Assembly: GCA_964424875.1 (NCBI GenBank)
Contig: CAYRKK010000001.1
Location: forward strand, 1 to 46,493
Source: Candidatus Woesearchaeota archaeon
Lineage (GTDB): Archaea > Nanobdellota > Nanobdellia > Pacearchaeales > GW2011-AR1
Length of the DNA: 46,493 nt
Direction: 5' to 3'
The notes under the pieces were generated by a model. The model saw nothing but the letters and a program-made list of their open reading frames with translations. It did no database searches and was not told the DNA's origin. The translations under genes were made by a program, and so were the position numbers. Shown here one piece after another: positions 11,710-46,444 of the stretch (positions are counted from its first letter, which is position 1; the number at the start of each line of letters is the position of its first letter).

Positions 11710-11778
11710 TAAGAAGAACTTTGATGCGATTTCCTTCGGAAATGTCAACCATTCAAGGTTCTCTATAAAGAGGTGAAC

Positions 11779-25935: not shown

Positions 25936-27030
25936 ATGGAAATAAAAAAAGAGGCATTTAAAAAAGCAAAAGAAGTTTTAAAAAGTTGTTCAACTCCTAA
26001 TGGGTTTTATGCATCAGGTGGAAAAAAAGGTTATGATGCAGTTTGGGCAAGAGATTCAATGATTACTTCTTTAGGAGCAAGTTTATTATCTGAATTTAAA
26101 AAACCATTTGAAAAAAGTATTATAACTCTTGCAAAAAATCAATCAAAAAAAGGACAGATTTCTAACTGTGTTGATAAATGGTCTGAAAGAAAACCCCATG
26201 TAGATTATCAATCAATTGATTCAACTTTATGGTATATAATTGGACATTTTATTTATAAAAAAAGATTCAACAACAAATTATTTAAAAAATATAAAAAATC
26301 AATTAAAAATGCAATTCAATGGTTAAGTTATCAAGATATAAGTGAAGATAATTTATTAGAGCAATTACCTACAACAGACTGGCAAGATGCATTTCCTCAT
26401 AAATACGGGCACACAATAAACACTCAAGCATTGTATTATAAAACATTAAATTTAATTGAAAAGAAAAAACAAGCAATAGAATTAAAAAAAGGAGTTAATA
26501 AAAATCAAGAGATTTGTTTATGGAATAAAAATTATTATTATGCTTATAGATGGAAAAACCATAACAAGTATAAGGAAATTGGAGATTGGTTTGATTCTTT
26601 AGGTAATTTACTTGCAATAATTTTTGATTTAGCTGATAAAAACCAATCTTTGAAAATTATTAATTATATAAAAACAAAAAAAATAAATCAACCTTACCCT
26701 GTAAAAGCAATTTACCCCTCAATAAAAAAATCAAGTAAATACTGGCAAGATTATTTTTTAGATTGTGATGCAAAAGAAGTAAATCATTATTTAAATGCAG
26801 GGATTTGGGGATATGTTGGTTGTTTTTATATTCTTGCCCTAATTAAATTAAAAAAATTCAAACAAGCTGAAAAAGAACTTAATAAACTTGCAGAATTAAA
26901 TCTAAAAGCAAATTTTCCAGAATGGACAAATCCAATAACAAAAGAATCTCATGGAAAAATGCAAGCATGGGAAGCAGGAATGTATATTTTGGCTTATGAA
27001 TCATTTAAAAATAAAAAAATCTTAATATAA
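25936..27030 (+). CDS. Six-hairpin (alpha/alpha)6 glycoside hydrolase, GDE_C / neutral-invertase-like
   Basis: GFYASGGKKGYDAVWARDS and DWQDAFP segments typical of amylo-alpha-1,6-glucosidase / GH100-like folds. Confidence 0.5.
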   Translation: MEIKKEAFKKAKEVLKSCSTPNGFYASGGKKGYDAVWARDSMITSLGASLLSEFKKPFEKSIITLAKNQSKKGQISNCVDKWSERKPHVDYQSIDSTLWYIIGHFIYKKRFNNKLFKKYKKSIKNAIQWLSYQDISEDNLLEQLPTTDWQDAFPHKYGHTINTQALYYKTLNLIEKKKQAIELKKGVNKNQEICLWNKNYYYAYRWKNHNKYKEIGDWFDSLGNLLAIIFDLADKNQSLKIINYIKTKKINQPYPVKAIYPSIKKSSKYWQDYFLDCDAKEVNHYLNAGIWGYVGCFYILALIKLKKFKQAEKELNKLAELNLKANFPEWTNPITKESHGKMQAWEAGMYILAYESFKNKKILI

Positions 27031-27040
27031 CAAGATAAAA

Positions 27041-27108
27041 AAGGAGGCAAACTTAGGAAAGGTGACTTGTTAGGAAAACCTAGGTTTTCATACGATTTGC
27101 ATACGAAT
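27041..27108 (+). promoter_or_regulatory. Conserved leader element, copy A (upstream of the GH130 gene)
   Basis: AAGGAGGCAAACTTAGGAAAGGTGAC, then hairpin GAAAAC-CTAG-GTTTTC (27074-27089), then ATACGATTTGCATACGAAT before the ATG. It is collinear with 45695-45778. Confidence 0.5.
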
Positions 27109-28329
27109 ATGGTAAAAGTAAAAAAAGAAAAAATTTTAATTAAACCAGGAGATATAGCTCCTTCATCTTCAAAATTAAAGGTTATGGGAGCTTTTAATCC
27201 AGGAGCAATAAGATTGCCTAATGGAGAGATAGTCCTCTATGCAAGGATACTTGAAAAATTAATTACAACAGAAGATGAAAATTATTTTTACTCTCCAAGA
27301 ATGATTGGAAAAAAATCTTTTAAATTAAAAATTGAAAGATTTAGAAAAGATACAATAAAACATGGTTCTGATCTTGATTTTATCTTTAAAGATGGAACAA
27401 AAAGACTTACTTTTATTTGTCATTTAAGAAAAGTTGTTTTAGATAAATCAGGTTTTAATATAAAATCTATTGAACAAAAACCAAGCTTTTATGGATTAGC
27501 ATGGGATGGAGAATTAGGAGTCGAGGATCCAAGAATAGTGCAAATAGGTAAATTATATGTCATGACTTATGTTAGTTTATCAAGAACAGAAAATATTTCT
27601 ACAAGCTATGCAATTTCTAATGATTGTAAGTATTGGTATAGGAGGGGATTAATTTTTGGAGAACAAAATAAAGATGTTGTTTTATTTCCTGAAATAATTA
27701 ATGAAAAATATGTTGCATTTGAAAGACCAGAAGGAAGTTTTCAATTTACACCTCCCCATATTTGGATTTCATATTCAAAAGACCTTGAATTTTGGGGTGA
27801 TAAAAAACCCTTCACACTTTCCAAAAAAGGTGATTGGGATTCAGGAAGAGTAGGAGCAGGACCTCCTCCAATTAAAACAGAAAAAGGATGGTTGTTTATT
27901 TATCACGGAATATTAAATTATAAAAATAAAATAAAAATAAATGAGATAATTAAAAGAATGGAAATTTCAGATTCAATCTCAGGAACAATCAAACCAACAG
28001 ATGTTATATACTGTGTAGGAGCAGTTCTTTTAGATTTAAAAAACCCTAGAAAAGTTATTGCTAAAACAAAAATTCCAATACTTTTTCCAATGAAAAAGCA
28101 TGAAATAGGAACTTTTGAAGATAAAAGAGTAGTCTTTCCAACAGGATTAGTTTTAGATGAAAGTAAAAAATATATTTTATTATATTCAGGTGCAGGAGAT
28201 TTCATAACAACAATAAAGAAAATAAGTTTAGATAAAATTTTCAAGAAGTTGGGAGTTTGGGATTTTTCTCAACATATTTTTTCAACTCCCTCAAATCAAC
28301 ATCATAAGCCCTTACAAAACTATCATTAA
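27109..28329 (+). CDS. GH130-family beta-mannoside phosphorylase/hydrolase
   Basis: GAFNPGAIRLPNGEIVLYARI and GVEDPRIV motifs of the 5-bladed propeller GH130 fold. ATG at 27109 is preferred over the TTG at 27067. The 3' tail overlaps the convergent gene by 89 nt. Confidence 0.75.
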   Translation: MVKVKKEKILIKPGDIAPSSSKLKVMGAFNPGAIRLPNGEIVLYARILEKLITTEDENYFYSPRMIGKKSFKLKIERFRKDTIKHGSDLDFIFKDGTKRLTFICHLRKVVLDKSGFNIKSIEQKPSFYGLAWDGELGVEDPRIVQIGKLYVMTYVSLSRTENISTSYAISNDCKYWYRRGLIFGEQNKDVVLFPEIINEKYVAFERPEGSFQFTPPHIWISYSKDLEFWGDKKPFTLSKKGDWDSGRVGAGPPPIKTEKGWLFIYHGILNYKNKIKINEIIKRMEISDSISGTIKPTDVIYCVGAVLLDLKNPRKVIAKTKIPILFPMKKHEIGTFEDKRVVFPTGLVLDESKKYILLYSGAGDFITTIKKISLDKIFKKLGVWDFSQHIFSTPSNQHHKPLQNYH

Positions 28330-44664: not shown

Positions 44665-44732
44665 AATCCCTCAAAACATTTAAAAACTACTCTCTCCATT
44701 TATTTTTACTAAACAAACAAAGTTTCCATACG

Positions 44733-45593: not shown

Positions 45594-45694
45594 AAATCAT
45601 CAGTTAAATTTATATAATCCATAATTAATCTTTTTAAAATCAACAAACAAAATGAAAATAAAACCAATAAGTAAAATAGAAGATAATCAACTGA

Positions 45695-45778
45695 AAGGAG
45701 CTAACTTAGGAAAGGTGACCCTTTAAGGAAGGTTGACTTATTAAGGAAACCGAGGTTTCCTTACGATTTCATACGAAA
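45695..45778 (+). promoter_or_regulatory. Conserved leader element, copy B (upstream of rpl11)
   Basis: AAGGAGCTAACTTAGGAAAGGTGAC, then an internal near-duplicate AGGAAGGTTGAC. The hairpin GGAAAC-CGAG-GTTTCC (45745-45760) follows, then TTACGATTTCATACGAAA before the ATG. It is collinear with 27041-27108. Confidence 0.5.
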
Positions 45779-46444
45779 ATGAAAATAAAACTTTTAATCG
45801 ACGGAGGAGACATGAAACCAGGACCAACAGTTGCTCAGCAATTAGGTCCAATGGGGATAAACATAGGAAAAGTTATTTCAGATGTAAATGAAGCAACAAA
45901 AGAATTTAAAGGAATGAAAGTTCCTGTTGAACTTGATGTTAATGAAAAAACAAAAGAATTCACAGTTCATACTTCTTCACCACCTACTTCAGAATTATTA
46001 AAAAAAGAACTTAACTTAGAAAAAGGCTCTAACAAACACGCAGAAATAAAAGTTGGAAATGCTTCTATAGAAGAAGTAATTAAAATTGCAAAAATAAAAC
46101 ATCCAAATATGCTTGAAAAAAATTTAAAAGCAGCGGTTAAATCAATTCTAGGAACCTGTGCTTCAATTGGAATCTTAGTTGAAAACAAAAATCCTAATGA
46201 ATTAATTCAAGATGTTAATAAAGGAAAATTTGACAAAGAAATTTCAGAAGAAAAAACAGAAACCTCTCCTGAAAAAAGAAAAGAATTAAGCGATTATTAT
46301 GCAGAAATTAAAGCAGCTCAAGATACTAAATTAGCAGAAAAACAAAAACAAGTTGAAGAAGCTGCTGCTAAAGCAGCAGAAAAAGATGGAAAAAAGGAGA
46401 AAAACCAACTGAAGGAGAAGCTAAACCTGCTGAAACAATTGTGA
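45779..46444 (+). CDS. rpl11: Ribosomal protein uL11 with a ~65-aa Lys/Glu/Ala-rich C-terminal extension
   Basis: GGDMKPGPTVAQQLGPMGINIGK and SSPPTSELLKK motifs. Confidence 0.85.
   Translation: MKIKLLIDGGDMKPGPTVAQQLGPMGINIGKVISDVNEATKEFKGMKVPVELDVNEKTKEFTVHTSSPPTSELLKKELNLEKGSNKHAEIKVGNASIEEVIKIAKIKHPNMLEKNLKAAVKSILGTCASIGILVENKNPNELIQDVNKGKFDKEISEEKTETSPEKRKELSDYYAEIKAAQDTKLAEKQKQVEEAAAKAAEKDGKKEKNQLKEKLNLLKQL

Follow-up and report, generated by a model that had tools for sequence, protein, structure and literature searches.

The window, that is, the whole 46,493-nt stretch of DNA that was analysed, carries a GH130 gene on the forward strand (27109-28329), downstream of a gene for a six-hairpin hydrolase whose stop codon, TAA, lies at 27028-27030. 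The 78 nt between this stop codon and the GH130 ATG (27031-27108, forward strand) are occupied by the long form of a small inserted element, which has moved the GH130 gene 78 nt away from the upstream stop codon. The orthologous loci of two relatives (G013 and G005) are empty: the same hydrolase gene is present there, and its stop codon is followed by 1-2 nt and the ATG. The layout of the GH130 copy, read from the sequence, is AAGGAGG-CAAAC-TTAGGAAAGGTGAC-TTGT-(TAGGAAAAC CTAG GTTTTCATA)-CGATTTG-CATACGAAT-ATG. A degenerate 5' module with the Shine-Dalgarno (SD)-like AAGGAGG (27041-27047, forward strand) aligns with the first of the two modules of another copy, found in ValRS. Next comes the purine-rich module TTAGGAAAGGTGAC (27053-27066, forward strand), which holds the SD-type pentamer GGTGA; both SD-like blocks described in an earlier note on this DNA are thus present. 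The hairpin P2, UAGGAAAAC-CUAG-GUUUUCAUA (27071-27092, forward strand), has nine positions with one G.A mismatch, and the 3' end consists of two repeats of CATACGA (27089-27095 and 27100-27106, spanning 27089-27106 on the forward strand), the second of which ends 2 nt before the ATG.

A second copy is located before rpl11 (45779-46444, forward strand). This gene encodes 221 aa with a long Lys/Glu-rich C-terminal tail. The inserted element measures 112 nt (45665-45776, forward strand) and comprises a 5' extension, two modules, the hairpin and two 3' repeats. It is directly flanked by an exact 15/15 repeat, AAATGAAAATAAAAC, a target duplication whose left copy (45650-45664, forward strand) contains the original rpl11 start codon and whose right copy (45777-45791, forward strand) carries the working one (45779). 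From the orphaned original ATG, a 24-codon uORF (MKIKPISKIEDNQLKGANLGKVTL followed by the stop) reads into the element and ends inside it (45652-45726, forward strand). The layout of this copy in the sequence is AAAGGAG-CTAAC-TTAGGAAAGGTGAC-(extra module CCTTTAAGGAAGGTTGAC)-TTAT-(TAAGGAAAC CGAG GTTTCCTTA)-CGATTT-CATACGAAA-ATG, with one purine-rich module more than at GH130. The tandem modules TTAGGAAAGGTGAC and TTTAAGGAAGGTTGAC lie at 45706-45737 and the hairpin UAAGGAAAC-CGAG-GUUUCCUUA, with nine perfect pairs and present in the minimum free energy (MFE) fold, at 45742-45763, both on the forward strand.

In the closest relatives (G054, G055, G041 and G060), the spacer between nusG and rpl11 has no counterpart of this insert, and rpl11 is preceded by a plain TATA box ~25 nt before the ATG. 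Only some genomes have the element at rpl11, and subtypes and junctions differ among them. In many members of the genus nusG and rpl11 overlap (ccagATGATTATTAA), and rpl11 starts inside the last nusG codons at loci L070, L079, L080, L084, L088, L089, L092 and L093. Since this overlap occurs in some members and a separate TATA box in others, the way these two genes are joined in an operon varies within the genus. A related but distinct leader, AACTGCGAAGCAG-CAATCTAAGGAAAGGTTGCATC-TAAATTTAGGAGGTTGCATC-TAGGAACCTAGGTTCCTGGATTAGGATT-ATG, precedes rpl11 at L072, L073 and L090 (genomes G011, G064 and G045); in G011 and G064 it comes after a normal copy located directly behind the nusG stop codon. As for the protein, the C-terminal extension of L11 is rich in Lys, Glu and Ala and reaches ~60 aa past the usual L11 length, and the rpl11 open frames of relatives (222-274 aa) suggest that the long tail is general in the genus.

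The collinearity of the GH130 and rpl11 leaders claimed in the earlier note is real, as 27041-27111 aligns with 45694-45781. For the 17-mer AACTTAGGAAAGGTGAC, two occurrences were counted in the window versus 0.15 expected, and 0 of 100 shuffles gave two. A covariance model (R1) of 49 positions was built from 14 equal-length copies; it matches the core of the GH130 copy (27048-27096) with 75.1 bits (E ~1e-16) and that of the rpl11 copy (45719-45767) with 67.1 bits (E ~1e-14). Regarding the three partial matches that had also been listed, the one at secE (44723-44732, forward strand, noted as 44722) is a genuine truncated relic, TTTCCATACG, composed of the 3' hairpin arm plus CATACG and adjoining the secE ATG (44733), whereas those at 11730 and 5917 are not copies (no model match at E≤1). 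The full element is present at secE in another member of the genus (G059, locus L039), where the string TTTCCATACGATGTTCAA behind it is identical to that of the window. Rfam 15 returned no family at gathering score across the window and none at the element with E≤5 at six loci.

The anatomy of the family and the counts of genomic context rest on 104 full copies aligned to R1. The minimal unit in these copies is a core of ~48-49 nt, which consists, in order, of a short A/T-rich head ((C)TATC or other), a purine module, TTGT, the hairpin P2 and CGA, the right end reading CATACGA. The purine module is the SD-like (T)TAGGAA(A/G)GGTGAC, with the variants GGTTGAC and GATGAC. The nine positions of P2 are U-A, A-U, G.A or A-U, G-C, A-U/G-C, A-U/G-C, A-U, A-U and C-G, closed by a loop of 3-5 nt. 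Forms of 57-112 nt owe their greater length to additional tandem modules, further CATACGA repeats or 5' extensions; both the GH130 copy and the ValRS copy measure 78 nt.

The scan of the genome and its relatives with the covariance model, proposed in the earlier note, revealed numerous further copies. A regex scan and BLAST of the own assembly (G000; 1.12 Mb, 130 contigs, 28% G+C, 75% complete) had more copies before the genes for ArgRS, a Trbp111-like tRNA-binding protein and SMC, and R1 matches this genome nine times. R1 matches were found in 34 of 49 genomes of the genus, with up to 18 copies each, and in 43 of the 151 genomes sampled from the order, distributed over 32 of 84 genera and five families, some of them with 60-70 bits. 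About 64 of the 104 copies are located at start codons and every one of these is in the orientation of the gene; the family thus strongly favours positions just 5' of a start codon. The spacer between CATACGA and the start codon is -1 to 2 nt in 62 of the 64 (0-2 nt in 58, whereas in 4 the ATG overlaps the last A). Another eleven copies run antisense within long ORFs, in parts that tolerate an insert, and leave the host frame open, and ~30 are elsewhere between genes, often 2-7 nt past a stop codon or centred in palindromes of an A-run and a T-run. Among the best-scoring copies examined in other families of the order, several sit in introns of tRNA genes (tRNA-Ser, Gly, Ala and Tyr), mostly antisense to the tRNA, and the element makes up only part of the intron.

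Pfam analysis of 60 downstream proteins identified L11 and SMC/Rad50 (four each), Spt5/NusG (three), SRP54, S8e, eIF-1A, EF-1beta, TrmB and a presenilin-type peptidase (two each), and also GluRS, ArgRS, S12, S6e, eRF1, a tRNA-binding domain, PNP and others. The downstream genes are therefore heterogeneous and mostly related to information processing.

Several observations on the surroundings of the copies are worth recording. In G000, three degenerate antisense copies inside ORFs (C8:522-570, C6:6908-6956 and C57:3038-3086) encode a common peptide, SM(G/E/S)TKVxLTSxxxLDS(E/K)E, located in regions rich in Glu and Lys at the head or the tail of unrelated proteins; one of these host proteins we take, from its start, to resemble ribosomal protein S4. 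Genome-specific repeat units of ~150 nt (L185, L023 and L011 in G008; L163, L164 and L194 in G049) embed the core between covarying flanking stems (e.g. AAAAATTAAG...CTTAATTTTT) and have ~70 nt upstream in common, including AGCTTAAGCT and a TATA-like box. Regarding these copies with flanking stems and an upstream TATA box, a free-standing small-RNA gene was not established, since the longer units are specific to single genomes, three in G008 and three in G049. Ahead of the element there is often a further small hairpin, of opposite polarity (GGTTTC-NNNNN-GAAACC), or else CTGC-GAA-GCAG (C9:1460-1480 and C41:1545-1563 in G000; L039; L012). At smc, one copy (L180, in G020:C23) is located 22 nt before the first ATG, and the frame (AYIKRLVMKGF) is open up to CATACGATC, which would allow a non-ATG start directly behind the element. 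In G000 (C9:1577-1646; ~1571-1640 of L002) the SMC start is duplicated behind the element (ATGACACACA ... TTGACACACA) around a further 47-nt insert with GAGGAG, leaving an 18-codon uORF and a TTG start; this start codon seems to have taken up two small insertions of different kinds.

Concerning the hairpin, the compensatory change of an A-U to a G-C pair between the GH130 and rpl11 copies is real and general across the family. Among 103 distinct copies, the stem pair 28-47 is AU in 57, GC in 39, GU in 3 and unpaired in 2, and the pair 29-46 is AU in 73 and GC in 16. The covariation score of P2 was not reached in shuffles (0/500), double-sided changes occur in five of the nine pairs, and 89.5% of the cells in P2 are paired, versus 38-62% for slid partners. 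The hairpins, rich in A-U, are thermodynamically marginal. In fact, the fold of the GH130 copy has a z-score of -0.5 and its MFE structure lacks the hairpin, which at this locus is supported by comparison among copies, with weak thermodynamic support. The strand signature of an RNA helix, G-U over A-C, was not found in the mismatches (GU 7 versus AC 11 overall; 5 versus 4 in leader copies). As there is no sense-strand bias in the hairpin mismatches, covariation alone is not a proof of selection on RNA, and the palindrome may be kept up at the DNA level, at the RNA level or both.

The earlier note had taken the pattern as selection on RNA structure and not on coding. An indel does shift the frame between the GH130 and rpl11 copies, as it had stated, and because the frames differ between copies and each contains stops, the leaders are non-coding and a coding reading was rejected. 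The claim thus holds for a non-coding element with a covarying hairpin, but the mismatch counts do not uphold its part on RNA-level selection. Moreover, the bases directly 5' of the purine module pair better with GGUGACUUG than controls do (mean duplex energy -4.6 versus ~-3.0 kcal/mol, p ~1e-6, although the copies are not independent), which suggests that a weak helix, P1, encloses the purine block as its loop.

That insertion has occurred is shown by several features. In ValRS of this genome, a 78-nt (26-aa) antisense insert in frame, read as CMESYENLGFPNKSPLLKEGHPTLDS, is the reverse complement of a two-module copy and is placed in a linker. Most ValRS orthologues in the genus lack it: BLAST matches split at this point, and 21 other aligned orthologues are gapped. 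Furthermore, six copies lie between exact direct repeats, the right-hand one beginning immediately behind CATACGA; these repeats measure 15 nt (AAATGAAAATAAAAC, at rpl11 here), 14 nt (rpl11 of G013), and 15, 18, 31 and 10 nt elsewhere. Flanking repeats of at least 12 nt accompany 6% of the copies versus 0.3% in mismatched controls; no flanking duplication was detected in ~94% of the copies. CATACGA is the right end in every copy with flanking duplications, and the shortest inserts delimited in this way (~48-49 nt) coincide with the model core. Some events, then, left a target duplication of variable length, 10-31 nt. A duplication containing the start codon, as at rpl11, is not a general rule (4 of 55 leader copies versus 5.7 expected). 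Terminal inverted repeats were not found, as the ends defined by the duplications (A/T-rich head ... CATACGA) are not complementary, and the inverted repeats that flank some intergenic copies vary from copy to copy.

Taken together, it is likely that the GH130 and rpl11 stretches are independent insertions of one very small, non-autonomous and apparently mobile family of Pacearchaeota-type DPANN archaea, with an SD-like block and a hairpin that would keep the displaced start codon translatable. Judging from the sequences, the resemblance between both leaders would reflect the common descent of the inserts and not co-regulation. The earlier note had proposed a dedicated leader linking a ribosomal protein gene to a glycan-degrading gene, possibly as a regulon. 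This link is not supported, as the same unit precedes dozens of unrelated genes, lies antisense within ORFs (as in ValRS) and in tRNA introns, is absent from orthologous sites in close relatives and is, in some copies, bracketed by target duplications; likewise, the downstream genes form a heterogeneous, mostly informational set and not a regulon. It had also considered a MITE-like fragment with no positional preference as the opposite outcome; the unit is indeed a dispersed insertion element, but its marked preference for start codons remains.

A dedicated cis-regulatory RNA leader, through which one protein, small RNA or metabolite would co-regulate translation, replication and some sugar genes, with selection keeping the copies, could explain why the copies at 64 start codons lie strictly in sense orientation with a fixed spacing, and why the same genes (L11, Spt5, SRP54, SMC/Rad50, S8e and EF-1beta) bear the element in several genomes. 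The covarying hairpin and the weak extra helix P1 would also agree with it. Nevertheless, we regard this explanation as improbable: the element is missing from the same genes of close relatives, one gene holds different subtypes in different genomes, insertion scars exist, and copies antisense in frame within ORFs or in tRNA introns do not fit a leader. Moreover, GU is not favoured over AC in the stem, the gene set is as heterogeneous as GH130, MinD, a presenilin-like protease and PNP, and an Rfam match is absent.

How a gene could tolerate such an insertion depends on how translation starts in this organism. In most genes of its own genome a TATA box is located at -29 to -22 from the ATG (TTT at -29 to -27; 555 long ORFs), which indicates that the mRNAs are mainly leaderless, and an element at the start codon consequently creates a leader. 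SD pentamers (GGTGA, GGAGG and others) are enriched at -15 to -9 of its genes, defining a minor SD class; this positional enrichment was used in place of the 16S 3' end, as the SSU gene was not found in the MAG. How far upstream of the core the TATA box stands varies from copy to copy, between -9 and -70. The core is consequently transcribed as a rule, and a fixed promoter in or beside the element was rejected on the same grounds.

Insertion at the start codon would give a structured leader to a gene that was leaderless or tightly coupled before. In the linear sequence 42-55 nt separate the SD-like block from the AUG, no SD sequence adjoins the displaced AUG, and the block is perhaps partly paired in the weak upstream helix P1. 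Folding of P2 would take out ~22 nt and leave GGUGA at ~8-11 unpaired nt (about 5 plus 3-5) from the AUG, a distance from which ribosomes could still initiate. Where a duplication orphans the old ATG, a short uORF reading into the element would result. The element would in this way be tolerated, and only insertions with a competent spacing would persist. Copies with GGTGA are located at a start codon in 47 of 65 cases, versus 17 of 39 for GTTGA/GATGA (OR 3.4, p = 0.006, with copies that are not independent). This bias, the spacing and the uORF support, but do not prove, the role of a hairpin-bridged ribosome-binding site (RBS) that makes insertions viable, and the SD-like block and hairpin probably keep the displaced start codon translatable. 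Alternatively, start codons could be preferred because the element is targeted to them, and not because translatable insertions are selected. A similar arrangement exists in phage T4, where genes 38 and 25 have a 'split' RBS whose distant SD sequence is brought to a working distance by a stem-loop. The T4 cases are single-gene, non-mobile and bacterial, and were shown by experiment, whereas the same mechanism is proposed here, by analogy, for an archaeal repeat family.

A mainly leaderless organism would also suit an element removed at the RNA level, excised or clipped from transcripts, e.g. by the tRNA-splicing endonuclease, so that leaderless mRNAs are restored and tRNAs cleared. The copies in tRNA introns of several families of the order agree with this, and a right end 0-2 nt from the ATG is what a cleavage recreating a 5'-terminal AUG would give. 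On the other hand, the copies inside ORFs never interrupt the host frame and have lengths divisible by three (78 nt), which points to translation rather than splicing; no bulge-helix-bulge could be drawn at the ends of the element by inspection of the tRNA-Gly intron, and in tRNAs the element is only a part of the intron. We therefore hold removal from RNA to be very improbable. Finally, a DNA-level signal (either a promoter/operator cassette or else a terminator/insulator, with a dimeric protein bound to the palindrome) would be in line with the TATA-like AAATTTAAAG directly upstream of some copies, the copies 2-7 nt past an upstream stop or centred in A5..T5 palindromes between convergent genes, and the symmetric mismatch pattern, but it is hardly credible given the unfixed TATA position (-9 to -70), the GH130 copy within an operon junction, the strictly polar orientation at start codons, and a covariation between half-sites that would be unexpected in a protein-bound palindrome.

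Two candidate mobilisers, Y1_Tnp and RVT_1, were profiled in the 49 genomes of the genus. Y1 transposase genes of the IS200/IS605 type are present in 20 of them with no association with the element (Fisher p = 0.54), and genomes with 8-13 copies have no Y1 match. Mobilisation of this type was rejected for lack of co-occurrence and because duplications exist. RVT_1 genes occur in 33 of the 49 genomes, 27 of 34 bearing the element versus 6 of 15 others (OR 5.8, p = 0.01, confounded by kinship); as the genomes are related and DPANN archaea commonly carry reverse-transcriptase genes, this association is only a lead. G000 has three such genes (C4:3770-4447, C15:8157-8810 and C7:3169-3834). A classical transposase does not fit a unit without terminal inverted repeats and with duplications of varying length.

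Full-text literature searches returned no account of such an element in DPANN or Pacearchaeota; a bulk MITE census mentions a high MITE density in some DPANN genomes, and no more. The closest systems in behaviour are the Rickettsia palindromic elements (RPEs), and the mycobacterial interspersed repetitive units (MIRUs) and Correia-type MITEs are also near. RPEs are palindromic repeats of ~105-150 bp in Rickettsia (Ogata et al. 2000, summarised in PMC10969869). They share with the present family a small, palindromic, non-coding nature, a host with a reduced genome and no known transposase (PMC10969869). They also insert in frame into unrelated housekeeping genes and leave the ORFs intact (PMC10969869), as the ValRS insert and the 11 antisense copies do here. 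The likeness concerns behaviour only. The present family differs in its 48-49-nt core (78 nt in the long form), its DPANN archaeal host, the placement of most copies exactly at start codons in one orientation, and the existence of some 10-31-nt target duplications and of copies in tRNA introns. MIRUs, as the account of Supply et al. (1997) in PMC3184786 presents them, are 40-100-bp repeats at intercistronic junctions that are co-transcribed with the operon and contain small ORFs whose ends meet the neighbouring genes, with empty and filled sites. However, according to the same account they are G+C-rich, have 4-nt direct repeats and form tandem arrays, whereas the element described here is built on an SD-like block and one covarying hairpin and mostly gives leaders to leaderless genes.

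Correia/NEMIS and other prokaryotic MITEs are likewise multicopy and non-autonomous, often lie immediately upstream of genes, are co-transcribed and can supply expression signals (PMC10969869). The small size, copy number, non-coding nature and filled and empty sites are those of a classical MITE, but classical MITEs have terminal inverted repeats and a duplication of fixed length set by the parent transposase (PMC10969869), while here there are no such repeats, the duplications span 10-31 nt and no parent IS is evident. REP/BIME and IS200/IS605-derived elements (PMC3733652) are also short palindromes, with a hairpin that could be the recognition feature for mobilisation; nevertheless, elements mobilised by Y1 (HUH) enzymes make no target duplication, adjoin a fixed tetranucleotide and co-occur with RAYT/TnpA (PMC3733652), in contrast to the duplications found here and the Y1 genes that do not co-occur.

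Among small non-autonomous dispersed repeats, this family stands out by its size, by its placement at start codons and by the way it inserts. Recognising the 'shared leader' as a repeat and not a regulon averts a false link between glycan use and ribosome synthesis in annotation. It also adds a well-delimited family, with its core, ends, insertion scars and order-wide distribution, to the poorly known class of very small elements of tiny DPANN genomes whose sites include start codons, tRNA introns and the interior of essential genes. Two questions become testable: how archaea with leaderless mRNAs tolerate or exploit a sudden structured leader of 50-110 nt, and which machinery inserts DNA with 10-31-nt duplications and no recombinase in view. 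It is conceivable, though we hold it doubtful, that the 48-nt unit represents a novel type of active mobile element, moved by host or unknown machinery through variable staggered joins without terminal repeats, homing to gene starts and acting as a portable hairpin-bridged RBS. If this were true, it would be a natural 'start-codon cassette' that rewires translation start across a whole order, turning leaderless genes into SD-led ones.
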